64,000 bases of DNA, from NCBI RefSeq assembly GCF_011045215.1, contig NZ_CP049201.1; one strand, 5' to 3'. The notes beneath the pieces were generated by a model. The model saw only the letters and a program-made list of their open reading frames with translations, was not told the DNA's origin and made no database searches. This DNA comes from Escherichia coli (GTDB lineage: Bacteria > Pseudomonadota > Gammaproteobacteria > Enterobacterales > Enterobacteriaceae). Shown piece by piece: positions 7,588 to 48,566 of the stretch. Positions within the stretch are counted from its first letter, which is position 1. Each line of letters opens with the position of its first letter. Both the position numbers and the translations under genes were made by a program.

Positions 7588-7663
7588 GGCCCTTTAGCTC
7601 AGTGGTTAGAGCAGGCGACTCATAATCGCTTAGTCGCTGGTTCAAGTCCAGCAGGGGCCACCA
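7588..7663 (+). tRNA. ileY: tRNA-Ile (anticodon CAU, lysidine-type; ileY/ileX-like)
   Basis: 76-nt sequence GGCCCTTTAGCTCAGTGGTTAGAGCAGGCGACTCATAATCGC...GGGGCCACCA with CAU in the anticodon loop and encoded CCA end; recognised as the E. coli minor tRNA-Ile. Confidence 0.93.
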
Positions 7664-10390: not shown

Positions 10391-10699
10391 AAACGATTAT
10401 GTAAATCATTTTATTTTGCCAACGGCCTCATTGTCGAAAGAAAAGAATACGCCCGTGTTTCCTGAATAGATTGACTTTTTTATCCAACCACACTTCAGCG
10501 CACTGCGTTTAAAAAATGCCTCATTCTTATGCGGAATATCATCATTTCATCATGATGTCTTTGATGAGCGGTGAACACAATACACTTGCGCTGTCTCTTC
10601 AGGATGAATCCCCTGGTCTGGTGCCTGTGGGCTGATGTTGCAGCAAAGCTAAGGTCGCTTAAACGCTACTCAGTATTCACTTTTCAGAGGATGAAATTT

Positions 10700-13600
10700 A
10701 TGAACAGGACCAGTCCCTATTATTTTCGCCGCTCAGTACTTTCCTTATTGATATCTGCCTTAATATATGCCCAGCCTGGAGAGGCTGCTTTCACATCAAT
10801 CGTTACTGGTATCGTAAATGGTGAAACTGTTGATGGTGATCAAATAGTAGATGAACGTGGTACAACTAATGATATTCATATCATTAATCACGGCCGCCAG
10901 ACTGTAATTGGTGGGATGTCTAATGGAAGTATTATTGAAGTTGGTGGACAACAAGATGTAGCAAGCCATAATGATTATCAGGGGCAAGCTAATAATACAA
11001 TCCTTCATGGGGGTGCACAGGTAATTTATAATGGCGGGAATTCTACCGGTACGATAATCGAGAGTGGTCATCAGCAAGTTTATAACGGTGGTACCAGCAA
11101 TGGCACGATAATCGAGAGTGGCAATCAGTACGTTTATAAAGATGGTACCAGCAATGGCACGATAATTAAGAATGGTAATTCAGTCGTCGAAGGAGGGAGG
11201 GCGAACGGGACTGTCATCGATGGTGGTAAACAAACAGTAACAACTCAGGGATATGTTGACGGTACGACGATAAATAAGTCCGGTTATCAGGACATCATGC
11301 AAGGAAGTCAGGCAAAGAATACGACAATAGATGGGGGGCGGCAGTATGTGGACTCGAGTTTTGTAGAAACCACCATCATCAAAAATGGGGGCGATCAAAG
11401 AGCATATAAGAGCCATGCGCTGAACACTACGATAGATGGAGGTCGACAGTATATTGATTCAAGTACTGCACAAATAACCACCATTAAAAATGGAGGAACG
11501 CAACAATTAATTGCCAGCCAGGCTATGATCACCTCGATTGAAGGGGGAATGCAGACGCTGGAAAGTTCGTCAATGGCGTACAATACCACGATCTATTCTG
11601 GCGGGAAGCAAATTGTTGATAACACCAGCACCTCGGATGTTATTGAAGTTTATTCCGGTGGCGTGCTTGATGTTAGTGGTGGTACGGCAACAAATGTTAC
11701 CCAGCACGATGGTGCAATTTTAAAAACAAACACTAACGGTACGACGGTGAGCGGTACGAATAGTGAAGGTGCATTCTCCATCCACAATCACGTGGCAGAC
11801 AATGTGTTGCTGGAAAACGGTGGTCATTTAGACATAAACGCATATGGTTCGGCAAACAAGACGATTATTAAAGATAAAGGAACAATGTCAGTTTTAACCA
11901 ATGCTAAAGCTGATGCGACCCGAATAGATAATGGCGGGGTTATGGATGTTGCCGGAAACGCGACCAATACCATAATTAATGGTGGTACACAGAATATTAA
12001 TAATCATGGTATTGCCACGGGCACTAATATCAACAGTGGAACGCAAAATATCAAGAGCGGCGGGAAAGCTGACACGACAAATATATCCTCCGGGAGCCGG
12101 CAGATTGTTGAGAAAGATGGTACGGCAACTGGCAGCAATATTAGCGCTGGAGGCTCGCTGATTGTCTATACCGGCGGTATTGCACATGGGGTTAACCAGG
12201 AGACGGGCAGTGCTTTAGTTGCCAACACGGGTGCAGGGACTGATATCGAAGGATACAACAAGCTCTCTCACTTCACTATTACCGGAGGGGAGGCTAATTA
12301 TGTTGTGCTGGAAAATACCGGCGAACTGACGGTAGTGGCTAAAACCTCGGCGAAAAATACTACCATTGATGCTGGCGGTAAGCTGATTGTCCAGAAGGAG
12401 GCTAAAACAGATAGCACCAGACTTAATAATGGCGGCGTTCTGGAGGTTCAGGACGGTGGTGAGGCTAAGCATGTTGAGCAACAATCCGGCGGCGCATTAA
12501 TTGCTTCCACGACCTCCGGAACACTTATCGAAGGAACCAACAGTTATGGTGATGCTTTCTACATCAGGAATTCAGAAGCTAAAAATGTAGTGCTGGAAAA
12601 CGCTGGCTCATTAACCGTCGTCACTGGTTCCCGGGCAGTTGACACGATTATTAATGCCAACGGCAAAATGGATGTTTATGGAAAAGATGTTGGCACTGTA
12701 CTCAATAGTGCTGGCACCCAAACAATATATGCCAGTGCCACTTCTGATAAAGCAAATATCAAAGGTGGCAAGCAAACGGTATATGGTTTAGCCACTGAAG
12801 CAAATATCGAAAGTGGTGAACAAATTGTTGATGGTGGGTCAACAGAGAAAACACACATCAATGGTGGCACGCAAACCGTTCAGAATTATGGTAAGGCAAT
12901 CAATACCGATATCGTCTCTGGCCTACAACAAATTATGGCAAACGGGACAGCGGAAGGTTCCATTATTAATGGGGGTTCACAGGTAGTTAATGAGGGCGGT
13001 CTGGCTGAAAACTCGGTGCTTAATGACGGCGGCACACTCGATGTGCGGGAGAAAGGCAGCGCAACGGGGATACAGCAGAGTAGCCAGGGCGCTTTGGTTG
13101 CAACCACCAGGGCGACGCGGGTCACAGGAACACGCGCGGATGGCGTCGCGTTCAGCATCGAGCAGGGTGCGGCGAACAATATCCTGCTGGCAAATGGCTG
13201 CGTGTTAACCGTGGAGTCAGACACCACTTCCGCCAAAACACAGGTCAATACGGGCGGGCAGGAGATCGTCAAAACAAAAGCCACTGCGACAGGCACGACG
13301 CTCACCGGCGGCGAACAAATCGTCGAGGGTGTGGCGAATGAGACAACGATTAACGACGGTGGAATACAAACAGTTTCGGCTAACGGAGAGGCAATAAAAA
13401 CAACGATCAATGAAGGCGGTACGCTGACAGTTAACGATAATGGCAAAGCAACAGATATCGTCCAGAACAGCGGTGCCGCTCTCCAGACGAGCACGGCTAA
13501 CGGTATTGAAATCAGCGGTACTCACCAGTACGGCACTTTTTCCATTTCCGGCAATTTAGCGACCAATGCGTTGCTGGAAAATGGCGGTAATTTATTGGTA

Positions 13601-15433
13601 TTAGCAGGCACCGAAGCTCGCGACTCCACGGTTGGCAAGGGTGGTGCAATGCAAAACCTGGGTCAGGACTCCGCCACAAAGGTTAACTCTGGCGGGCAAT
13701 ATACCCTTGGGCGGTCAAAAGATGAGTTTCAGCCTCTGGCCCGGGCAGAAGATCTCCAGGTCGCTGGCGGGACGGCAATCGTCTACGCAGGTACGCTGGC
13801 GGATGCATCGGTCAGTGGCGCGACAGGAAGCCTGTCGTTAATGACGCCACGGGATAATGTTACGCCAGTTAAACTCGAAGGGGCGGTCCGGATTACCGAT
13901 AGCGCGACATTAACTCTGGGAAATGGCGTCGATACAACGCTTGCCGACCTGACGGCTGCCAGCCGGGGCAGTGTCTGGCTTAACAGCAATAATTCCTGTG
14001 CAGGTACCAGCAACTGCGAATATAGAGTAAACAGTTTGCTACTCAACGACGGTGATGTTTATTTATCAGCACAAACAGCAGCGCCTGCCACAACTAACGG
14101 TATCTACAATACGCTGACAACCAATGAACTTTCCGGTAGCGGTAATTTCTACCTGCATACCAACGTTGCAGGCTCCCGGGGCGATCAACTGGTCGTCAAC
14201 AACAACGCCACTGGTAATTTTAAAATCTTTGTTCAGGATACCGGCGTCAGCCCACAGTCTGACGATGCGATGACGCTGGTGAAAACAGGGGGAGGGGATG
14301 CTTCGTTTACGCTGGGCAATACCGGCGGTTTCGTTGATCTTGGGACCTATGAGTATGTCCTGAAAAGTGACGGCAACAGCAACTGGAACCTGACCAATGA
14401 TGTCAAACCCAACCCGGATCCCAACCCAAATCCGAAGCCAGATCCAAAACCAGACCCAAAACCGGATCCGAAACCAGACCCGACTCCCGATCCAACGCCG
14501 ACACCCGTTCCGGAGAAACGCATCACGCCTTCTACGGCAGCCGTACTCAATATGGCTGCAACATTACCGTTGGTATTTGATGCTGAGCTAAACAGTATTC
14601 GCGAGCGGTTGAACATAATGAAAGCGAGTCCACACAACAATAATGTCTGGGGGGCGACGTATAACACCCGTAATAATGTCACCACCGATGCGGGTGCCGG
14701 GTTTGAGCAGACGCTGACCGGAATGACAGTGGGGATCGACAGCCGTAATGATATTCCTGAAGGAATTGCCACGCTGGGCGCTTTTATGGGTTATTCCCAT
14801 TCACATATCGGTTTTGATCGCGGAGGACATGGCAGTGTGGGCAGTTATTCTCTGGGCGGCTATGCCAGTTGGGAACATGAAAGTGGTTTCTATCTGGACG
14901 GTGTCGTGAAGCTGAACCGTTTTGAAAGTAACGTAGCCGGTAAAATGAGCAGCGGTGGAGCCGCCAATGGCAGTTACCACAGCAACGGGCTGGGCGGTCA
15001 CATTGAAACCGGGATGCGATTTACCGATGGTAACTGGAACCTGACGCCGTATGCATCGTTAACGGGGTTCACCGCTGATAACCCCGAATATCATTTATCC
15101 AATGGCATGAAATCGAAATCAGTCGATACCCGCAGTATATATCGTGAACTGGGGGCAACGCTGAGTTACAACATGCGTCTGGGGAACGGTATGGAAGTTG
15201 AGCCGTGGCTGAAGGCGGCTGTGCGCAAAGAATTTGTCGATGATAACCGGGTGAAGGTGAATAATGACGGTAATTTCGTCAATGATTTGTCGGGCAGACG
15301 TGGAATATACCAGGCAGGTATTAAAGCCTCATTCAGCAGTACGTTAAGCGGGCATCTCGGGGTGGGGTATAGCAACGGTGCCGGTGTGGAATCCCCGTGG
15401 AACGCGGTGGCTGGTGTGAACTGGTCGTTCTGA
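10700..15433 (+). CDS. ypjA: AIDA-I-type adhesin-like autotransporter (ypjA-like)
   Basis: ORF 10571-15433; probable start ATG 10700 (MNRTSPYYFRRSVLSLLISALIYAQPGEA signal peptide); passenger built of ~19-aa imperfect repeats (NGTIIESG.QQVYNGG...), PNPDPNPNPKPDPKPDP linker, C-terminal beta-barrel ending ...AGVNWSF. Confidence 0.85.
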   Translation: MNRTSPYYFRRSVLSLLISALIYAQPGEAAFTSIVTGIVNGETVDGDQIVDERGTTNDIHIINHGRQTVIGGMSNGSIIEVGGQQDVASHNDYQGQANNTILHGGAQVIYNGGNSTGTIIESGHQQVYNGGTSNGTIIESGNQYVYKDGTSNGTIIKNGNSVVEGGRANGTVIDGGKQTVTTQGYVDGTTINKSGYQDIMQGSQAKNTTIDGGRQYVDSSFVETTIIKNGGDQRAYKSHALNTTIDGGRQYIDSSTAQITTIKNGGTQQLIASQAMITSIEGGMQTLESSSMAYNTTIYSGGKQIVDNTSTSDVIEVYSGGVLDVSGGTATNVTQHDGAILKTNTNGTTVSGTNSEGAFSIHNHVADNVLLENGGHLDINAYGSANKTIIKDKGTMSVLTNAKADATRIDNGGVMDVAGNATNTIINGGTQNINNHGIATGTNINSGTQNIKSGGKADTTNISSGSRQIVEKDGTATGSNISAGGSLIVYTGGIAHGVNQETGSALVANTGAGTDIEGYNKLSHFTITGGEANYVVLENTGELTVVAKTSAKNTTIDAGGKLIVQKEAKTDSTRLNNGGVLEVQDGGEAKHVEQQSGGALIASTTSGTLIEGTNSYGDAFYIRNSEAKNVVLENAGSLTVVTGSRAVDTIINANGKMDVYGKDVGTVLNSAGTQTIYASATSDKANIKGGKQTVYGLATEANIESGEQIVDGGSTEKTHINGGTQTVQNYGKAINTDIVSGLQQIMANGTAEGSIINGGSQVVNEGGLAENSVLNDGGTLDVREKGSATGIQQSSQGALVATTRATRVTGTRADGVAFSIEQGAANNILLANGCVLTVESDTTSAKTQVNTGGQEIVKTKATATGTTLTGGEQIVEGVANETTINDGGIQTVSANGEAIKTTINEGGTLTVNDNGKATDIVQNSGAALQTSTANGIEISGTHQYGTFSISGNLATNALLENGGNLLVLAGTEARDSTVGKGGAMQNLGQDSATKVNSGGQYTLGRSKDEFQPLARAEDLQVAGGTAIVYAGTLADASVSGATGSLSLMTPRDNVTPVKLEGAVRITDSATLTLGNGVDTTLADLTAASRGSVWLNSNNSCAGTSNCEYRVNSLLLNDGDVYLSAQTAAPATTNGIYNTLTTNELSGSGNFYLHTNVAGSRGDQLVVNNNATGNFKIFVQDTGVSPQSDDAMTLVKTGGGDASFTLGNTGGFVDLGTYEYVLKSDGNSNWNLTNDVKPNPDPNPNPKPDPKPDPKPDPKPDPTPDPTPTPVPEKRITPSTAAVLNMAATLPLVFDAELNSIRERLNIMKASPHNNNVWGATYNTRNNVTTDAGAGFEQTLTGMTVGIDSRNDIPEGIATLGAFMGYSHSHIGFDRGGHGSVGSYSLGGYASWEHESGFYLDGVVKLNRFESNVAGKMSSGGAANGSYHSNGLGGHIETGMRFTDGNWNLTPYASLTGFTADNPEYHLSNGMKSKSVDTRSIYRELGATLSYNMRLGNGMEVEPWLKAAVRKEFVDDNRVKVNNDGNFVNDLSGRRGIYQAGIKASFSSTLSGHLGVGYSNGAGVESPWNAVAGVNWSF

Positions 15434-16111: not shown

Positions 16112-17464
16112 TTATGGGTTTAACTCAAACTGTTCCCCGTTTATTAATTTTCGCAATAAGTCAAGTGCCTCAGATGAGTATTTTCCGACACCACTTTTCC
16201 CAGATTTAATGAAAACATGATAATTGTTGTCTGATGCTTTAATGTTGAAGTCGGTTAGTTTTCTTAATTTTTCGAATTCTTGATTAACATAGTGCCACGA
16301 TCCCATGTCGAGAATCCTTGCCAGATCAGACATTGTATATGGGAAACTAGCATTTAGTGCCTGCCCATTATTGAGTTCAGCGATACCATACATTTTTGCT
16401 AATGCATCATCATGCTCTGCAATATTGCGGAACATCTCAAAATCGTATGGAAGTTCTTGTTTAACAAGGGATTCTGATGCGAATGTGTACGTTCTGGCTA
16501 GAAATGCACGCACAAGTTTTGGATTAACGCTAATTTCCGGTGTATTAGATGATAACGCATCAAAAATCCAACCAAAATTATTTGCGTATATCACCTTGAT
16601 TCGAACGCTTTTATTCTCACCAACACCGATTAGCAATTCCTTTTGATGAGAACCAGTGGCCTCGCAGTCCTTACTGAAGGAGACAAGATAAATATTTGGA
16701 ATCAATGCATTATTGGGAGCGATGATTTCATCTATATCAGAGAGAATTGCCTTTATGTTTTCATCATTGATACTGTACCCAAAGAAAAACAAGGGGTGTT
16801 CAGCAAAATATGTTAGCAACTTAGCACTGATATATTTCTTACGTTTATAGAAATCAACATAATCTTCATTTGTAATAACAATACTTTCAACTTCATGACT
16901 GCTACCATGAATTTTCATGATTTCGCCATAAGATGAATAATTCACTTTAACAACGTTATGACCAACTATTGCCTGATAATTGTCAAATATTTTTTCTAAT
17001 GTGTCGTCATAATTTGTTGTGATTATTGCATGAGGTTTTACTTTCCTTAATTTCTGAACTTCCTCTGTATATTCCATGTTCGAGAAATCAACGGAGTTTG
17101 ATAATTCATTCAGAATGGATGCAATTTCATGCTTAATATAAATATCTTTTGGAGTCGTTCCTTCAAAGTATGTCTCTGGATAGCGATCCTTGCCATCATC
17201 CCAAGCCCATTCAGCATAGAAGTCACAAAAATCGCTAGCAATCAAAGGTTTGTTATCACCCTTTGTTTGGCTGTAGTAACCATAAGGGCGTTTGATCAAG
17301 GGGCATATTTCCGCTAGTTGCTTTAATAGACCTTCCCAGTCAGGCGCTTTTATATATCGTTGTGAAATACCTGCACCCATGAATAAAATGGGTTGGACTT
17401 GTAAGTTTTCAAGGCAAGATTTAACATCTTCGATTATTTCTTCTTGATATTCCGTAAAGTCCAT
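16112..17464 (-). CDS. Stand-alone SIR2-family (ThsA-type SIR2_2-like) protein with unknown C-terminal domain; candidate NAD+-depleting anti-phage effector
   Basis: 450-aa AT-rich ORF; sirtuin-like motifs ILFMGAGIS (GAGxS), ITTNYD, KIHGSSHE (HG) and FFFGYSINDENI line up with ThsA SIR2-domain motifs as I recall them; no partner gene within ~0.7-0.9 kb. Confidence 0.7.
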   Translation of the reverse strand: MDFTEYQEEIIEDVKSCLENLQVQPILFMGAGISQRYIKAPDWEGLLKQLAEICPLIKRPYGYYSQTKGDNKPLIASDFCDFYAEWAWDDGKDRYPETYFEGTTPKDIYIKHEIASILNELSNSVDFSNMEYTEEVQKLRKVKPHAIITTNYDDTLEKIFDNYQAIVGHNVVKVNYSSYGEIMKIHGSSHEVESIVITNEDYVDFYKRKKYISAKLLTYFAEHPLFFFGYSINDENIKAILSDIDEIIAPNNALIPNIYLVSFSKDCEATGSHQKELLIGVGENKSVRIKVIYANNFGWIFDALSSNTPEISVNPKLVRAFLARTYTFASESLVKQELPYDFEMFRNIAEHDDALAKMYGIAELNNGQALNASFPYTMSDLARILDMGSWHYVNQEFEKLRKLTDFNIKASDNNYHVFIKSGKSGVGKYSSEALDLLRKLINGEQFELNP

Positions 17465-23439: not shown

Positions 23440-24151
23440 GGACCCGACTACATGATTTACCCGTTAACTTAATACGGCTCACGCCGGAACCCCTTCGGAA
23501 AAATCCTTTCTGCTTCAGCGAGTGAGTGCTGTGGGCACTCAGCGGCGCTGCAAGAGGGATTAAACGTTGGGTTTTCATCTGACGGGTAAAAATAATCTAC
23601 ATATATCTGTCGTCGGGGGCGTGAGCCGGTGCGTAGCACTCTCTCAGAAAAATTCCTGAAGGGGTTTTATCTGAAATCTGGAAACTACCTGGCTTTTGAA
23701 AAAAGGAAGTGGTAATGCAATCGATCGGACTCAACATTGCAACAGCGTAAGCTGTTTCCAGTATTAAAAGAATAAATAGTTGTCATTTTAAAATAAAATA
23801 TTTTCAATTTTGTATTGATTTAAATTTTAAAGCTGATAGTACTTAATTATAAAAACAAAAAAGGAGAGGGTTATGAGTAATATTTTTGTTTCTTCTCAGG
23901 AAGAAAAGTTTATATTTGTTGTTGATAAATATATAACACAGCATCGCGACAGTGTTAATAACAATATTTTTTACAGAAAACTTTATGTGCTTTTCGCTGG
24001 ATACCATCTGAAGTATTTTTATTCACGGGCGCAATATCGCAATTCGTGTTATTGCGTATTCCGCTCTATTCGATCACGGATTGGCATCGAAGTTCGATCA
24101 GCGATTCGCATCCATTCGATCAACCGGGAACTTAACTTTTTCTACCGCTTT

Positions 24152-24907
24152 TTAACTCGTTTTTTCGCTGCTTTCCACTGTCGGGGGATTTTTCCTCAGG
24201 GACTCTCCCTGAAGGACCACTCTGTGTGAGTTATGTACCAGTCTGTCCAGGATGGCATCTGCTGTTGTTGGGTTCTCCATCAGACCATGCCATTTATCTA
24301 CCGGGAACTGGCTTACCACTATCGTGCTGCTTTGTCCGTAACGATCCTCTGTGATCTCCAGAAGGTCATTACACTGGGCGTTACTTAACTGTTCCAGCCC
24401 CAGATCGTCCAGGATTAGAACCTGTATTTTTTGCAACTGTTTCAGATATTTCAGCCAACTGCCATCAACACGTCCCTGAGCCAACTGTTCCAGTAATCGC
24501 CCGGTTCTACAGTACCGGACGCTGTATTTCTGTCGACATGCCTGTTCGCCCAGCGCATTGGCTATCCAGCTCTTACCGCATCCTGTCGGACCGGTTATCA
24601 GTAGGTTTTTCCTGTGGATTATGTAGTGGCCGTTCAGCAGTTCCCTCATCTGTTCAGCCCGCAGACCTCTTGAGGCCGGATAACGCAGCCCTTCCGGTGT
24701 TGCCTGATATTTCAGGCAGGCATTTTTTCTCAACCGTGCCACACGACTGTTTTCTCTGCTCAGAAGCTCGTCATCAACCAGCAGTGTCAGCCTTTCCTCG
24801 AACGACAGTTCGTCGTAAGTCTGAGGCGTTTCCCGTTGCCGTATCAGGCTCCCGGCCATCGCCGGGAGTTTCAGTTGGGTCAGTTTGTTTAACAGATTAT
24901 CACTCAT
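24152..24907 (-). CDS. istB: IS21-family helper ATPase IstB
   Basis: ORF 24152-25150; likely start MSDNLLNKL (24907); Walker A GPTGCGKS and typical IstB layout; overlaps the end of istA. Confidence 0.85.
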   Translation of the reverse strand: MSDNLLNKLTQLKLPAMAGSLIRQRETPQTYDELSFEERLTLLVDDELLSRENSRVARLRKNACLKYQATPEGLRYPASRGLRAEQMRELLNGHYIIHRKNLLITGPTGCGKSWIANALGEQACRQKYSVRYCRTGRLLEQLAQGRVDGSWLKYLKQLQKIQVLILDDLGLEQLSNAQCNDLLEITEDRYGQSSTIVVSQFPVDKWHGLMENPTTADAILDRLVHNSHRVVLQGESLRKNPPTVESSEKTS

Positions 24908-24923
24908 ACGGTTGTTCCTTCTG

Positions 24924-26489
24924 TCAGTGGTAGTAGCCAGGACCACGCAGGTTTTCATGCTCTGAAGCATATGCCGGATGTTGTTCGCCCTGGCGGGATA
25001 ACGGAAGCTCAACGTTATCCCGATGATGACGCAGCAGATTGTCGATAAAGCGTCTGTCCGGGGCGTTATAGTGCAGGGCAACGTAACAGGCCTTTTCCAG
25101 CCGTTCCGGGCCGTATTTTTTCTGAAGTGCCAGCAGACCCAGGACTGCACGGTAAGCCAGCTCCGGATGGGGTTTGGCTTTCAGCATGGATTCAACCACC
25201 CGGCCTGTGGACGGACCTGTACGGTTTCCCTGCTCGATAAGGCGTTCCGGTGTCCATGTCCCATGCCGCCGGTGGCGTTCTGGCATGTGAAGCGGATTGG
25301 TTGTGTGTTTATATTCATGTGTGCTGCGCGGATGTTGCGCCACACACTGCCCCTTGTGCCAGAGCTGTACCACCGACTGCCCCACCTTCAGTGACAGACG
25401 CTGACCGACCAGTTCGTGTGGAACGGAGTACCAGTGACGGGCATATTCAACGTGGTAGTCAGGGCCAACCTTCACGGCTTTGTATTCCGTGTATTCATAA
25501 GGCTCCAGAGGCAGCGGAGAGAGTGCTGGTGCATCCAGCATGCGGAAGCGTTCTGCGCGGGTTTGATTACCGTATCCCTTCATTGGTCGGTTATTCATGT
25601 CCGTCAGCAACTCCCGAAGGCGTGCATTCAGCGCCCTGAGCGTGTGGAAGGTTTCATTACGGATGCGGGCAAGAAGCCATCGCTCGACGATGAGGACGCC
25701 GTTTTCTGCTTTTGGTTTATCTTTAGGTTTGCGCGGGCGGGCCGGGATAATAACCGTGCCATAGTGCTCAGCCAGCGCCTGATAACTGTCGTTGATGACA
25801 GGCTCATAGCGATCGGCTTTTTTCACTGCGCTTCTGAGGTTATCGGGGATGAGCAGCTTCGGTACGCCGCCCAGGAAGGTCAGGCAACGGCTGTGGGCAT
25901 TTAACCATGACATCATGTCCTGACCTTCGCACGCTTCAACATAGGTATAGTTGGACGCCCCCATTACAGCCACGAAGATTGCCACGCGGCGTATCTCTCC
26001 GGTGTCCGGATTAATAACAGGGACCGTAGGACCACAGAAGTCGATAAAGAGCTTTTCGCCAGCACGATGCTCCTGTCGCATGGAGAGGCGTCGCGTTTTT
26101 TTCCACTTCCGGTAGCAACGGCAGAAGTGTGAGTATCCCATCGCTTTGTCACCCGCCTGTGCCTTGTATTCCATCCACAACAGTTGGCGCGTCACGCCAG
26201 GTTTTCTCATTTCCGTATCGAAGTACAGCATGTCAGGCATAACAAGCTCTGACGCAGAGGTGTCTTTGGGCGGGAAAATGAGTTTCTCCAGCGTGTCATG
26301 GGATATATCAGCAGGTAATGGCCATGACAGAGAAGAGGCTTTGAAGCGGGCAAGAACCTCAAAAACGGTTGAGGCGCTGATGTGTAACGTCAGTCCGATA
26401 CAACGGTTAGTCAGCTTCTTATCGAACTTGAGCTGAAGGATCTTAAAACAAGTTTCCATAGTGCTCCTGGATTTTCTCTTTTTGGACAT
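24924..26489 (-). CDS. istA: IS21-family transposase IstA
   Basis: ORF 24924-26591; likely start MSKKRKS (26489); N-terminal HTH followed by integrase-like catalytic core; paired with istB. Confidence 0.8.
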   Translation of the reverse strand: MSKKRKSRSTMETCFKILQLKFDKKLTNRCIGLTLHISASTVFEVLARFKASSLSWPLPADISHDTLEKLIFPPKDTSASELVMPDMLYFDTEMRKPGVTRQLLWMEYKAQAGDKAMGYSHFCRCYRKWKKTRRLSMRQEHRAGEKLFIDFCGPTVPVINPDTGEIRRVAIFVAVMGASNYTYVEACEGQDMMSWLNAHSRCLTFLGGVPKLLIPDNLRSAVKKADRYEPVINDSYQALAEHYGTVIIPARPRKPKDKPKAENGVLIVERWLLARIRNETFHTLRALNARLRELLTDMNNRPMKGYGNQTRAERFRMLDAPALSPLPLEPYEYTEYKAVKVGPDYHVEYARHWYSVPHELVGQRLSLKVGQSVVQLWHKGQCVAQHPRSTHEYKHTTNPLHMPERHRRHGTWTPERLIEQGNRTGPSTGRVVESMLKAKPHPELAYRAVLGLLALQKKYGPERLEKACYVALHYNAPDRRFIDNLLRHHRDNVELPLSRQGEQHPAYASEHENLRGPGYYH

Positions 26490-26625
26490 TGACGTCTCCA
26501 CTGGTTTAAACACGGCAATGGAGACTGTGGTGAAAAGAGTTAATTCCCGGAGTGACTGGCGAATTCCAATCAATGATCGGAAGTATGCCAAATCGTGATC
26601 GATTGTGATGCCAACATATCCTTAC

Positions 26626-28100
26626 CCATAAATCCGAGTGATGTTATTCTGTTGATAAATTAACCATAATTTAGAGGAACTATGGAAAACTGGGTTATTA
26701 AGGAGCTGGAATCTCTGAATGTTGGTGATATCAGGCTCGAAAAGCGAATAAAGCACGTTCTCAGTGTGCTTAGCCGTTCACCAAAGGAAAGTATTCCCGT
26801 ATCCTGCCGTACCTGGAGTGAGACAAAAGCTGCTTATCGTTGCTTTTCCAGTGATAAAATTTCAGCCGATAAAATCATGGCTCCCCATAAGAAAAATATC
26901 ATCGAAAGGACTAAACAGTTTAAACGGGCTCTGGTTTTACAGGATACGACTGAACTAAATTATTCTGGTCAAAAAAAGAAACAGGGCGTCGGTCCCAGAC
27001 GACATGAAAATGAGCGAGATTTGTTTATTCACCCTCAATTGGTTATAAGTGATTCAGGTATTTGCTTAGGGGTTTATGATGATTATCAATGGTTCAGAAA
27101 AGAACTCAAAACTCAGAAACAAAGTCGTAAAGAAATAACTAATGATTCACTTCACAGGAAACATATCAGTGAGAAAGAAACAGGACGGTGGATAGAAGGA
27201 TATAAAAAAGCAACAGAACTGGCTAGGTCCTGTCCTGATACCCAGATAATTTCTGTTTCAGACCGTGAAGGTGATATTTACGACCTCTTTGAGAGTGCAG
27301 AAAATGAAAGTGGGATAAAGGCTGACTGGCTCGTAAGAATGAAGAGCATTAACCGGGCTATACTGAATTCATCAGGAAAAAGAGACTCATTACTCCTGAA
27401 TGAAAAAATGATGCAGATTTTGCCACAGCAGATAATTGAGTTTACCCTTCCGGAAGGACGAGGACAACCTTCCCGCAAAGTCCAGCAGGAGCTACGCTTA
27501 GCAAGGTTGACGCTACATCCACCCACCGGTCGAAGAGGAAAGTTACGTTGTTCTCCGGTAACGGTAACTGTATTACTTGCAAAGGAAATAAATGCTCCAG
27601 AAAGTGTCCAGCCATTAGTATGGTGGCTAATGAGTAGTGTACCTCCAGAAAAGCTGACGGAACCCGCACAGCTTATTCAATGGTATTTATTACGCTGGCA
27701 GATTGAAGTTTTCTTTAAGGTATTAAAAAGCGGATGTCAGGTTGAGAAATTACAACTTGAGACATTTGAACGCACAAGGAACTGTCTGGCCTTATACCTT
27801 ATAATCTCATGGAGAATACTTTATCTTAGCTCATTGTATAAAATGGTTCCGGAGGAACCCTGTGATTTAATTTTCGAAAAGAAAGAATATGAGTATCTCT
27901 GGATATTGGTAGAGAATACGCCTCCACCTGAAAACATACCGAATATAAGAACGGCGGTTTTAATGCTTGCAAGATTAGGAGGATATCTGGCAAGAAAAAA
28001 TGATTCGCCTCCAGGCCCTAAGACTATATGGTCAGGATTAACACAATTAATGCTGTCAATTAATGCCATAGAAATAGCCCAGAAAACTTGTGGGTAAGGG
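26626..28100 (+). mobile_element. IS4-family insertion sequence nested in the IS21-family left end
   Basis: Single transposase ORF flanked by imperfect terminal inverted repeats (CCTTACCCATAA... / ...TTGTGGGTAAGG); both flanks carry IS21-type repeat motifs; boundaries approximate. Confidence 0.6.
26682..28097 (+). CDS. IS4-family DDE transposase
   Basis: 471-aa ORF containing the IS4 Y-x2-R-x3-E-x6-K signature (YLLRWQIEVFFKVLK). Confidence 0.85.
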   Translation: MENWVIKELESLNVGDIRLEKRIKHVLSVLSRSPKESIPVSCRTWSETKAAYRCFSSDKISADKIMAPHKKNIIERTKQFKRALVLQDTTELNYSGQKKKQGVGPRRHENERDLFIHPQLVISDSGICLGVYDDYQWFRKELKTQKQSRKEITNDSLHRKHISEKETGRWIEGYKKATELARSCPDTQIISVSDREGDIYDLFESAENESGIKADWLVRMKSINRAILNSSGKRDSLLLNEKMMQILPQQIIEFTLPEGRGQPSRKVQQELRLARLTLHPPTGRRGKLRCSPVTVTVLLAKEINAPESVQPLVWWLMSSVPPEKLTEPAQLIQWYLLRWQIEVFFKVLKSGCQVEKLQLETFERTRNCLALYLIISWRILYLSSLYKMVPEEPCDLIFEKKEYEYLWILVENTPPPENIPNIRTAVLMLARLGGYLARKNDSPPGPKTIWSGLTQLMLSINAIEIAQKTCG

Positions 28101-28195
28101 TATGTGATGCCAAACTGTGATCGGAGATGGATGCCAAATCATGATCGATTCGAATGCCAAACTGCGATCGATTCAGATGCCATTTTGCAGTTATC
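28100..28195. repeat. Displaced IS21-family subterminal repeat block (3-4 copies of ATGCCAAA..TGATCGATT)
   Basis: Read directly: GTGATGCCAAACTGTGATCGG, GGATGCCAAATCATGATCGATT, CGAATGCCAAACTGCGATCGATT, CAGATGCCA. Confidence 0.6.
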
Positions 28196-34371: not shown

Positions 34372-34890
34372 TGTTTATCTCCTTTTTTGTTGTTTTCAAG
34401 ATATTAATGACACCAGATTTTACGGTATTCAAATTTATTTTTGTTTTATTAGGGGGTATCTGATTTGGTTTGCTTAAGGTTATTCTTAACTTAATGGAAC
34501 ATAGGGACTTTAAGGTTATCCTATGTGATGTGGATTAACCATTTTCACAAGAATATTTATCCATATTGGAGCTAATCTGTATAAAGGAGATAATTAGAGG
34601 CTCAGATATTAATACTATAGAGAGTAATGCTATAGGATATGGAAAAGATCATGTAATATAATGGTGGTTATTAATGTTCATCTTAATTTTGGAAATTAAA
34701 TGAGTAGTGTTTTTTATGAGGTTTTTTGCTGTTGATAATTCTTATTAAAATTTGAAGAGCATCCTTTAAGTTATTCGGCTTGAGGATGCTCATTTAAAAT
34801 TTAAGCAGCGTAGTCTTTTTCAACAGCCAGGAAGGGGTGATGCTGCCAACTTACTGATTTAGTGTATGATGGTGTTTTTGAGGTGCTCCA

Positions 34891-35133
34891 GTGGCTTCTG
34901 TTTATATCAGCTGTCCCTCCTGTTCAGCTACTGACGGGATGGTGCGTAACGGTAAAAGTACTGCCGGACATCAGCGCTATCTCTGCTCTCACTGCCGTAA
35001 AACATGGCAACTGCAGTTCACTTACACCGCTTCTCAACCCGGTACGCACCAGAAAATCATTGATGTGGCCATGAATGGCGTTGGCCTCAACACGATTTTA
35101 CGTCACTTAAAAAACTCAGGCCGCAGTCGGTAA
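34891..35133 (+). CDS. insA: IS1 InsA (deletion variant, 80 aa)
   Basis: [80 protein letters not shown]. Confidence 0.85.
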
Positions 35134-35177
35134 CCTCGCGCATATAGCCGGGCAGTGACATCATCGTCTGCGCGGAA

Positions 35178-35555
35178 ATGGACGAACAGTGGGGCTACGT
35201 CGGGGCTAAATCGCGGCAGCGCTGGCTGTTTTACGCGTATGACAGGCTCTGGAAGACGGTTGTTGCGCACGTATTCGGTGAACGCACTATAGCGACGCTG
35301 GAGCGTCTTATGAGCCTGCTGTCACCCTTTGACGTGGTGATATGGATGACGGATGGCTGGCCGCTGTATGAATCCCGCCTGAAGGGAAAGCTGCATGTAA
35401 TCAGCAAGCGATATACGCAGCGAATTGAGCGGCATAACCTGAATCTGAGGCAGCATCTGGCACGGCTGGGACGGAAGTCGCTGTCGTTCTCAAAATCGGT
35501 GGAGCTGCATGACAAAGTAATCGGGCATTATCTGAACATAAAACACTATCAATAA
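35178..35555 (+). CDS. insB: IS1 InsB segment (expressed as InsAB' by -1 frameshift)
   Basis: [22 protein letters not shown]...[15 protein letters not shown] matches the IS1 InsB C-terminal region. Confidence 0.85.
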
Positions 35556-35600
35556 GTTGGGACCATTACCAAATAGTTTATATGCTAAAAATTTAGGGAA

Positions 35601-38600
35601 TCATTTTCCTAATTCTCCAGCTAAAAGTTCAGCCTGCTTCAAAACAGTCTCTGTGGCGAGCAATGACATATCAGGCGGATAACCATATTTTTTGAGCAGA
35701 CGTTTTACCACCACGCGAATTTTTGCTCTTGCTGCTTCTTTCACTGTCCAGTCAAGACTGACATTGTTGCGGATAGCCTCCGTAAGTACGACTGCCAGTT
35801 CTCGTAGTTTTTCCTTTTCCATTAACTCGCGAGCACTGTCGTTATCTGCAACAGCAGAATAGAAGGCATATTCATAAGCGCTGAGGTTTAACTGGCTGGC
35901 AAGGCTGTCAGATTCCTGGATAGTCTTGGCAAGCTTGATTAGCTCATCAATTACCTCCGCTGCTGTCAGTACCTTGTTCTGGTAGCCATTGATTGCAGAG
36001 GTCAGCATATCAATCAGTTTTTTGCCTTGGGTGATACTTTGATTCGAGCGAACTTTAATCTCGTCAGAAAGCAGTTTTTTAAGCGTTTCCAAAGCAATAT
36101 TTCTGTGTTGGTAATCCTTCATTTCCTGAAGGAATTCTTCAGAAAGAACGGAAATATCTGGCTTTTGTATCCCAGCAGCGTCAAAAATATCAACAACTTT
36201 ATCGGTAACCAGAGCCTGATCGATAGTCTGTTTTACCCGAACTTCCAGACTGTCATTGTGTTCTTCTTCTGATCCGTCTGAGTTTTCAGTAAATTTATTC
36301 AGTCTGGCTTTTACTGCCTGGAAGAATGCTACTTCGGGTGCCGCTTCCATTGCTTTATCGTGCGGTGTCGCCAATGCAAATGCCTGCGACAAGGCTGCAA
36401 CCGCAGCCAGGAAACGCATTTTACCTTTACCGTTATCCAGCCCTAAAATATGGTTTTCTGATTCAAGAATAATTGTCAGGCGTTGTGAAGTAGTTGCGGC
36501 AAAGTAAGCTTTGTAATCGTAGCCATGCATCATGCCTTCCAGGATTTCCAGCTTTTCCTGCATGAGCGTTACAGCTTCTTCCTGAACCTCAGCAGGATCT
36601 CCACGTCCACCTGCATCAGAGTAAAAGGAGAGGGCTTCTTTTAAATCAGAGGCAATGCCCAGATAGTCAACAACCAGACCGCCTATCTTATCTTTATACA
36701 CACGGTTCACACGGGCAATTGCCTGCATGAGGTTGTGGCCTTTCATTGGTTTGTCGATATACAGCGTATGCATGCTGGGAGCGTCGAAGCCGGTTAACCA
36801 CATATCACGCACTATCACCAGTTTCAGCTTGTCGTCGTCATCCTTCATACGATTAGCCAGAACCTGACGTTCTTTTTTTGTGGTGTGGTGTTTAGCGATT
36901 TCTGGTCCGTCAGCAGCAGAAGAGGTCATGACGACTTTAATCACGCCATCATTTAGATTATCGCTGTGCCATTCAGGTTTTAACTCTATGATTTCTTTAT
37001 AAAGTTCAGCAGCAATACGACGGGACATGGTGACAATCATGCCCTTGCCATGATCGGCATTAGATTTTAAGCGCTGTTCAAAGTGCTGAACCATATCCGC
37101 CGCAATAGCTTTAATACGTTTTGAACTGCCAATCAAACCTTCGATTCTGGCCCATTTAGACCGTTCTTTCTGGGTAAGCGTCAGCTCGTCTTCGTTAAAC
37201 TCATCGTCGAAGTCTTCAATTAGCTGGCGACCTTCGTCACTGATGGCAATTTTGGCAAGACGGCTTTCATAGAAGATACGCACGGTTGCACCGTCTTCTA
37301 CGGCCTGTGAGATATCGTAGATATCAACGTAGTTACCAAAAACAGCAGGTGTGTTTACGTCCGTTTTTTCTATGGGGGTTCCGGTAAAGCCAAGATAGGT
37401 AGCATTGGGCAAGGCATCACGCATATATTTGGCAAAGCCGTAAACGGTGCGTTTACCTGTTACGTTGCCTTCGCTGTCTTTCACGTCAACTTCTTTGGCG
37501 CTGAAACCGTATTGTGAACGGTGGGCTTCATCAGCGATAACGACAATATTGGTTCTGTCTGACAACAACTCATAGATATTGCTGCCATCATTAGGCTGGA
37601 ATTTTTGAATAGTGGTAAACACCACACCACCAGAGGCTACGCGCAAATATTCTTTGAGTTCTTCCCGGTTGTCGGCCTGTTTTGGTGTCTGACGAAGTAG
37701 CTAGGTCGCGGAAGAGAACGTACCGAATAGCTGATCATCCAAATCGTTACGGTCAGTAATCACAACAACTGTCGGATTATCCAGCGCCAGCACAATTTTC
37801 CCGGTATAAAACACCATCGAAAGCGATTTACCGGAACCCTGAGTATGCCAGACTACGCCCGCTTTGCGATCTCCGGTTTTTTGCGCATTAACAAGATCTT
37901 TACTGTTACGTCCCTGCTGGCGCAGTGCCACTTCGGCAGAGGGGGAGTCCGCATTCACCGCTGAGGCACGAATAGTGGAAAGAACTGCTGCATTGACCGC
38001 GTAGTACTGGTGATAAGCCGCCATTTTTTTAACAGTACGGATACTGATAATCCCTTTGCTGTCTTCATGTTTGCTGGCCTCAAACACGATAAAGTGGCGG
38101 ATCATATCCAGCAGCGTTACAGGATTAAGCAACCCCTGTAATAAAACTTCAAGCTGTGGTTGGGTACTGGTGGCTTGCGTTTTACCGTTAGCAGTTTTCC
38201 ACGTCATATAACGACTGAAATCGGCAGAAACCGTCCCCGCTTTGGCTTCCAGCCCGTCAGATATCACATTAAAAGCATTGTAGTTAAACAGACCGGGGAT
38301 TTGGTTCTGATAGGTTTTAATCTGATTATAGGCACCTGTTACCGTAGCATTTTCGTCAGCGGCATTTTTAAGTTCGATAACGACTAATGGCAGGCCGTTG
38401 ATGAATAAAATAAGATCAGGTCGGCGGGTATGATTGCCTTCTTTGATGGTGAGCTGATTAATGACCAGAAATTCATTATTAGTGGGATCGTTAAAGTCGA
38501 TCAGGCAGGCCAGCTCTCCTTGTGTATTACCATCCTTACTGACTTCGATATTGATCCCTTCGGTCAACAGGCGATGAAAGGCCAGATTGTTTGCCATTAG

Positions 38601-38840
38601 ATCAGGTGTGCTGATCTGCATCACCTGTTTCAGGGCTTCCTCACACTTCTGTTCACTAAGGTGCGGATTCAGGCGTTGTAGAGCAATACGCACCTTATCT
38701 TCAAGGATAACCTGCTGATAGCTACGTAACGGATTGATTCCACTGGGTTCAATGTCCGGGCCGTAAACATACTCATAGCCCAGCCCTTGCAGGTGCTCAA
38801 TTGCCATTACTTCAATATCGGATTCGGTCATCTTTGCCAT
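35601..38840 (-). pseudogene. hsdR: Type I restriction enzyme R subunit HsdR interrupted by an in-frame amber codon
   Basis: ORFs 37701-38840 (N-terminal, helicase motif I GSGKS) and 35601-37646 (C-terminal) are in the same frame, separated by a single TAG at 37701-37703 (...[33 protein letters not shown]...). Confidence 0.8.
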
Positions 38841-48203: not shown

Positions 48204-48566
48204 TGGTGGAGCTGGCGGGAGTTGAACCCGCGTCCGAAATTCCTACATCCTCGGTACTACATGCTTAGTCAGTCTTTACATTCGCTTGCCAGCTGCGGAC
48301 GGACACGCCACTAACAAACTAGCCTGATTAAGTTTTAACGCTTCAACCCCAGGCAGGGCTTCCACGCGATCTCTTTTGGGTTTGACCTCTCTTGATCCCC
48401 GTCCTAAGAGCGGAGGCTAGGGAGAGAGGGCTCTAAGCAGGTTATTAAGCTGCTAAAGCGTAGTTTTCGTCGTTTGCGACTATTTTTTGCGGCTTTTTAC
48501 GAGGCCAACCGCCCCTCGGCATGCACCTTGGGTTTCGCAAATCCCGTCGAATCCAGAATCAGCCCC
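48204..48566 (-). ncRNA. ssrA: tmRNA (SsrA)
   Basis: Reverse complement reads GGGGCTGATTCTGGATTCGACGGGATTTGCGAAACCCAAGGTGCATGCCGAGGGGCGGTTGGCCTCGTAAAAAGCCGCAAAAAATAGTCGCAAACGACGAAAACTACGCTTTAGCAGCTTAA...GCTCCACCA, i.e. E. coli tmRNA including the ANDENYALAA tag-encoding segment; 363 nt. Confidence 0.97.

Follow-up and report, generated by a model that had tools for sequence, protein, structure and literature searches.

A defective IS1 relic in an ssrA-integrated island of Escherichia coli and the IS1-associated loss of its Kiwa genes

IS1 elements of the IS1A/IS1R type have terminal repeats of ~23 bp that start with GGT at both ends, are flanked by target-site duplications of 8-9 bp, and carry insA and insB' frames linked by a programmed -1 frameshift at an A6C motif, which together encode zinc ribbon, helix-turn-helix and DDE_Tnp_IS1 domains. 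The classical description of adjacent deletions is that of IS1 at gal. In IS-mediated adjacent deletions, one end of the element remains with its original neighbour and the other abuts DNA that was once distant, with no duplication; missing duplications are usually put down either to such deletions or to recombination between IS copies (PMC11708052). To bind the IS1 ends, InsA and InsAB' depend on their zinc finger as well as on their helix-turn-helix, and the transposase can work in trans on IS1 copies that are otherwise immobile and on mini-IS1 cassettes (PMC12903888).

An IS1 copy of this kind is present in the window (the whole stretch of E. coli DNA that was analysed, 64 kb in length), within a mobilisable island of ~33 kb (approximately 15443-48203) integrated at ssrA. 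Its gene order, counted from the end distal to ssrA, is a SIR2-family gene, several genes with ankyrin repeats, a relaxase gene and the IS1, followed by hsdR, hsdS, hsdM, two ParB-like genes, a recombinase gene and an integrase gene. The best account of the locus, which we regard as very probable, is that this IS1 is a relic associated with the loss of the Kiwa anti-phage genes, kwaA and kwaB, from the island, likely by adjacent deletion, and that its ends are usable in trans. The features concerned are listed below; coordinates with the prefix L004 are those of 21EVA, which has a Kiwa-bearing form of the island.

34801-34835, minus strand: last 35 bp of kwaB (11 codons and the stop), a stub of the deleted Kiwa system (collinear with L004:8566-8600; PADLOC)
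34836-35570, plus strand: IS1 copy with a 33-bp internal deletion, defective here (alignment with K-12 IS1A; RefSeq pseudogene call in 19AR1724)
34836-34858, plus strand: left terminal repeat (IRL), same as in IS1A (alignment and repeat count)
34891-35133, plus strand: insA minus 11 codons, 80 aa, with the zinc ribbon intact and the helix-turn-helix shortened (open reading frame, Pfam, protein comparison)
35077-35084, plus strand: sole remaining copy of GGCGTTGG, the junction of the 33-bp deletion (IS1A alignment)
35109-35115, plus strand: A6C motif of the programmed -1 frameshift, intact (motif and IS1A alignment)
35145-35147, plus strand: TAG in the insB' (-1) frame, where IS1A and most sister copies have CAG (sequence comparison)
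35178-35555, plus strand: remaining insB' open frame with the DDE_Tnp_IS1 domain, separated from the InsA part by the TAG (PF03400, open reading frame)
35548-35570, plus strand: right terminal repeat (IRR), with three substitutions at 35561-35563, positions 8-10 counted from the outer end (alignment)
35571-35600, no strand: 30-bp spacer from IRR to the hsdR stop codon, equivalent to the kwaA-hsdR intergenic DNA of Kiwa-bearing islands from L004:10163 (comparison with 21EVA)
35601-38840, minus strand: hsdR (type I restriction subunit R) with an amber codon, Q380*, at 37701-37703 (comparison with the intact 1079-aa gene in 19AR1724)
48204-48566: tmRNA gene (ssrA), adjoining the island

A preliminary description of the window had placed an IS1 at 34836-35570, and end-to-end alignment with K-12 IS1A bears this out: the copy is 735 bp long, compared with 768 bp for IS1A, and differs from it by 22 substitutions and a single 33-bp gap (97% identity), with both ends aligned base for base. 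A single occurrence of the 23-bp left repeat in the 64-kb window, with none expected, shows that the match is not due to chance, and a search with this repeat found no second IS1 copy in the window that might have been a recombination partner. The right repeat is of full length and, like the left, starts with GGT, but GGTAATGACT of IS1A has become GGTAATGGTC; the earlier statement that both terminal repeats are intact is correct for the left one, which is identical to that of IS1A, and wrong for the right one. The 735-bp form is not a named isoform; an established isoform with an insA of exactly this length had been given in the preliminary description as evidence that would speak against its reading. 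The window copy has in common with IS1 of the IS1A/IS1R type the 23-bp ends, the insA and insB' frames with an A6C motif for the -1 slip, the zinc ribbon, helix-turn-helix and DDE_Tnp_IS1 domains, and 97% nucleotide identity; unlike IS1A, it is 735 rather than 768 bp long, its helix-turn-helix is short by 11 residues, its IRR has three changes, its insB' has an amber codon peculiar to its own lineage, and it lacks a duplication. The absence of an 8-9 bp target-site duplication from the window copy does not exclude it from the family. The element is an ordinary but broken copy of an already known kind, and what is known about IS1 is unchanged by it.

In IS1A, the 33 bp missing from the window copy lie between two copies of GGCGTTGG (positions 242-249 and 275-282, 33 bp apart), and their loss is the product that would be expected from slippage between these two 8-bp direct repeats. 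At 80 residues, the resulting InsA is shorter than the usual 91; the missing stretch is CRATARIMGVG, residues 66-76 (or, in an equivalent alignment, GVGCRATARIM, 63-73). This is the in-frame insA deletion given in the preliminary description, and its position between two repeats in the DNA-binding region is likewise upheld by the IS1A alignment and the shortened domain. The zinc ribbon of InsA is still found (PF03811, E 1.6e-19); the HTH_Tnp_IS1 domain (PF12759, E 2.2e-16 versus 4.7e-31 in K-12 InsA) scores 59.6 bits, compared with 106.6 in K-12 InsA and a cut-off of 24.9, its score being reduced because 11 residues are absent. The 33-bp loss would take one helix out of the helix-turn-helix of InsA and InsAB', and the shortened domain may well have lost DNA binding. 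The possibility that the deletion arose recurrently by independent slippage is not supported, since a copy on a Klebsiella plasmid has eight linked SNPs of the relic.

The A6C motif is intact, as had been stated, the insA and insB' frames are both present, and the downstream frame encodes a complete DDE_Tnp_IS1 domain (PF03400, E 2.3e-72). The fusion would nevertheless be halted by the TAG, ten codons past the slip site, with which InsAB' would end at residue 85, and no functional product is predicted. Because a later C>T change created this amber codon in insB', the window copy is predicted to be unable to make transposase at all, and the element is a non-autonomous relic of IS1. The same copy in 19AR1724 is annotated by RefSeq as a pseudogene ('IS1 family transposase; programmed frameshift; internal stop'). 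The amber codon is private to a small clade that includes the window, 19AR1724 and TUM9812, and 23 of the 27 copies of 735 bp that were examined have an open InsAB' frame of 221 aa; the CX21 and EC27 alleles lack the amber codon. IS1 'transposase' calls at this locus vary by genome, with an open frame in some and a pseudogene in others. Neither the insB' amber codon nor the IRR substitutions appear in the preliminary description.

Copies of the 735-bp form have been inserted elsewhere: in yaeI with a 9-bp duplication (GGCGGCGAT), between yegI and yegJ with an 8-bp duplication, and, also with an 8-bp duplication, on the Klebsiella pneumoniae IncL/M plasmid whose copy shares the eight linked SNPs with the relic. 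The variant IRR bounds two transposed copies with 8-9 bp duplications (L026, L018), which indicates that this repeat is functional. Given transposase from other IS1 copies, the ends of the 735-bp form can probably still be used; mobilisation in trans is the simplest reading, because the helix-turn-helix is needed for binding and IS1 transposase works in trans (PMC12903888). The relic resembles mini-IS1 and immobile IS1 (PMC12903888) in having usable ends, a defective transposase of its own and sister copies that have moved; it differs from them in that it is hardly shorter than its parent, that nearly the whole protein is still encoded, and that its mobilisation in trans is deduced from genome comparison.

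It is unlikely, by contrast, that elements of the 735-bp form are autonomous, as an isoform in which the preceding helix (KIIDMAMNGVG), joined to the recognition helix (LNTILRHLK) through the repeated GVG turn, would rebuild the helix-turn-helix and leave the shortened InsAB' working. Such an isoform would fit the copies at new loci with 8-9 bp duplications, the 221-aa frame that is open in 23 of 27 copies, the balance of 8 synonymous and 5 non-synonymous differences from IS1A, and the HTH_Tnp_IS1 score of 59.6 bits, above the cut-off of 24.9; but one helix is gone, mobilisation in trans by the many full-length IS1 copies of such hosts explains the same facts (PMC12903888), and gene conversion from active copies, of which mosaics have been seen, can keep frames open. 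For the window copy, which has the amber codon, the question is moot. A more speculative and still less probable proposal is that the 735-bp IS1 forms a lineage of its own, the remodelled InsA being either no bar to its spread or the cause of it, with the removal of Kiwa perhaps selected rather than neutral. For the spread, a rebuilt helix-turn-helix or the loss of InsA repression might be the route; as to selection, Kiwa reportedly responds to plasmid conjugation besides phage (PMC11785009).

The 9 bp to the left of the window copy (CCAGGAAGG) and the 9 bp to its right (AAATAGTTT) are unrelated, and no target-site duplication is present because the two flanks come from different places. The 21EVA island has the same ankyrin gene, with kwaB, kwaA and hsdR next in order. 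On the left, the DNA flanking the IS1 is collinear with this island to L004:8600, a point within kwaB and 35 bp from its 3' end; on the right, collinearity is regained at L004:10163, which lies 21 bp upstream of where kwaA starts. The flanks are thus collinear with the ancestral arrangement but parted by a lost segment, and they are found 1,562 bp apart in related E. coli, e.g., 21EVA and E24377A. The segment replaced by IS1 (L004:8601-10162, 1,562 bp) contains the whole of kwaA and all of kwaB except its last 11 codons and stop; PADLOC identifies KwaB (E 8e-165) and KwaA (E 2.5e-95) on it, both full-length in sister islands. The adjacent kwaA and kwaB genes that define Kiwa are present in 21EVA and E24377A, whereas the window has the stub alone and the system is absent. 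Because this 35-bp stub persists, Kiwa was lost rather than gained, and the Kiwa-bearing order is ancestral. Comparison of the islands shows an ancestral form that evidently had hsdM-hsdS-hsdR followed by kwaA-kwaB, from which an IS1-associated event evidently deleted 1,562 bp including kwaA and nearly all of kwaB.

The preliminary description had noted the lack of a 9-bp duplication and had suggested an IS1-mediated deletion or rearrangement beside hsdR. No duplication is recognisable at the corrected boundaries (its left flank had been quoted one base out of register), the distance of 1,562 bp between the flanks in 21EVA supports the suggestion, and the comparison of flanks with related genomes that it had proposed reveals the IS1-associated loss of kwaA and most of kwaB. 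The idea that a duplication has decayed by point mutation, that the boundaries are misplaced, or that the deletion is an assembly artefact is refuted, with next to no probability left to it: both ends match the IS1A ends base for base in the alignment, the Kiwa-bearing island has 1,562 bp between the sequences that match the flanks, and the same 735-bp copy with the same junctions recurs in hundreds of independent assemblies from three genera. The missing duplication at the window copy is a true historical signal and not a boundary error.

With regard to the route of the deletion, IS1 would first have entered the AT-rich kwaA-hsdR spacer at AAATAGTTT, and its left end would then have been transposed, replicatively and within the same molecule, into kwaB, the outcome being an adjacent deletion of the classical IS1 kind. 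Sister genomes have a constant right junction with hsdR and a variable left junction. The left end abuts kwaB in the window, ypjA in TUM9812 (equivalent to joining window position 12126 to 34836, with 12127-34835 lost), DNA just beyond tRNA-Ile in ST540, and rpsT in L021, a single draft genome. Because one end is fixed and the other varies, an adjacent deletion starting from an insertion on the hsdR side is favoured. The locus is like other IS-mediated adjacent deletions (PMC11708052) in that one end keeps its original neighbour, the other abuts once-distant DNA, there is no duplication, and nested deletions with a fixed end occur in sister genomes; the event at this locus is reconstructed from genome comparison. 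Throughout its length, the TUM9812 copy is the one with the amber codon and the 33-bp deletion, and therefore its new left junction must have arisen either with transposase from another IS1 copy, acting in trans, or through crossing-over in the first 68 bp.

Two other routes lead to the same end product. If kwaB and the kwaA-hsdR spacer had each received an IS1 in the same orientation, homologous recombination of the two could have excised Kiwa and left one hybrid copy whose flanks do not match. Such recombination is a recognised source of missing duplications (PMC11708052), IS1 recombination and gene conversion are active at this locus (as seen in the mosaic copies of MIN11, ST540 and L021), and repeated insertion of IS1 there is exemplified by the IS1B that lies within the relic of CX21. 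This route would, however, call for two insertions, independent of each other and no more than 1.6 kb apart, neither of which is seen in any genome listed, and the pattern of fixed and variable ends is better suited to end-mediated deletions, so that recombination between two copies, while a serious competitor, is doubtful. Very unlikely, in our estimation, is a single transposition reaction in which IS1 arrived and the 1,562 bp were removed at the same time, with no duplication of the target at any stage. One-step insertion and deletion without duplication has been reported for other IS families, the available parts of the same review describing no IS1 case (PMC11708052). Consistent with one step, no intermediate with a duplicated IS1 and Kiwa retained was found among the matches listed for complete E. 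coli genomes, with four of the 20 Kiwa-bearing genomes inspected individually; the product is the same as that of the other routes, and sequence alone cannot separate them.

The two flanks joined were searched against 5,426 complete E. coli genomes and matched in 318. The 735-bp IS1 separates the flanks in 268 of these 318; it is present with the same junctions in 268-271 of the 5,426, and Kiwa is kept at the same place in 20, E24377A among them; the commoner form of the island in complete genomes is therefore Kiwa-less, and many of the genomes having this form are from human clinical isolates. Identical junctions were found in Citrobacter sp. R56 (L032) and Kluyvera cryocrescens NBRC 102467 (L033), each with ankyrin genes, the 735-bp IS1 and hsdR; compared with the window, the IS1 is 99.5% identical and the flanks ~97.6%. 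Because the junctions are identical in Citrobacter and Kluyvera, the loss of Kiwa predates the spread of the island between genera. On the preferred reading, the locus would be a clean, datable case of the erosion of a defence island by an insertion sequence, in which one event took Kiwa from beside a type I restriction system and the scar was then carried with the island across E. coli, Citrobacter and Kluyvera.

Other deletions have occurred here too. In 99COLEC (L003, 6137-6628) there is a second, independent loss of Kiwa without any IS: 24 bp stand in place of L004:8218-9804 (kwaB plus the 3' part of kwaA), and 337 bp of the 5' end of kwaA adjoin hsdR. This genome was ruled out as an 'empty site', being a separate IS-free deletion that retains the 5' part of kwaA. 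In EM20-18-50 (L006, 3934-5000), IS903B adjoins hsdR and the IS1 relic is reduced to its last 42 bp, so that a further deletion associated with an IS evidently took place there.

Among the IS1 copies found at this locus, mosaicism is strong, SNPs of the relic type being mixed with SNPs of the IS1A type, and some copies have IS1A-like SNPs yet keep the 33-bp deletion, which blurs the record of past events. MIN11 (L008, 1800-2567) has a 768-bp IS1 with exactly the same junctions, relic-type SNPs at both ends, and IS1A-type SNPs together with the 33 bp in its centre; it looks like a copy in which the deletion was repaired by gene conversion from another IS1. That it is the undeleted ancestor was judged less likely, given its mosaic SNPs and its being the sole such copy among ~50 matches listed with spans. 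The relic of CX21 (L005, 5601-7112), of 735 bp, is interrupted at position 684 by a full-length IS1B-like copy, which has a clean duplication of 9 bp (relic positions 676-684). The relic probably also serves as a substrate for recombination and gene conversion, and it is still a spot at which deletions, nested insertions and gene conversion recur.

Several other features of the island and its surroundings were noted. The hsdR amber codon is due to a single C>T change on the coding strand at Gln380 in a gene otherwise of the same length as that of 19AR1724, and hsdS and hsdM are open; because of this amber codon, restriction has probably been lost too in the window genome, besides Kiwa. At the ssrA-distal end of the island, a 450-aa open reading frame (16112-17464, minus strand), which the annotation of 19AR1724 gives as a SIR2-family NAD-dependent deacylase, could be a further gene with a role in defence. 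A 4.1-kb insertion at 24053-28189, absent from 19AR1724, contains open reading frames of 555 and 332 aa (minus strand) and one of 471 aa; from their translations, we take the first two to be a putative IS21-type pair and the third a putative IS4-type transposase. A 5-bp overlap of alignment blocks at its junction suggests a duplication. Outside the island, ARAGORN predicts tRNA-Met (CAT) at 7588-7663, whereas RefSeq-annotated relatives have tRNA-Ile for the matching gene; it is presumably of the lysidine-modified ileY type. The DNA between this tRNA and the island, which includes a ypjA-like open reading frame of 1620 aa (10571-15433), is 90-95% identical to that of TUM9812 and absent from 19AR1724.
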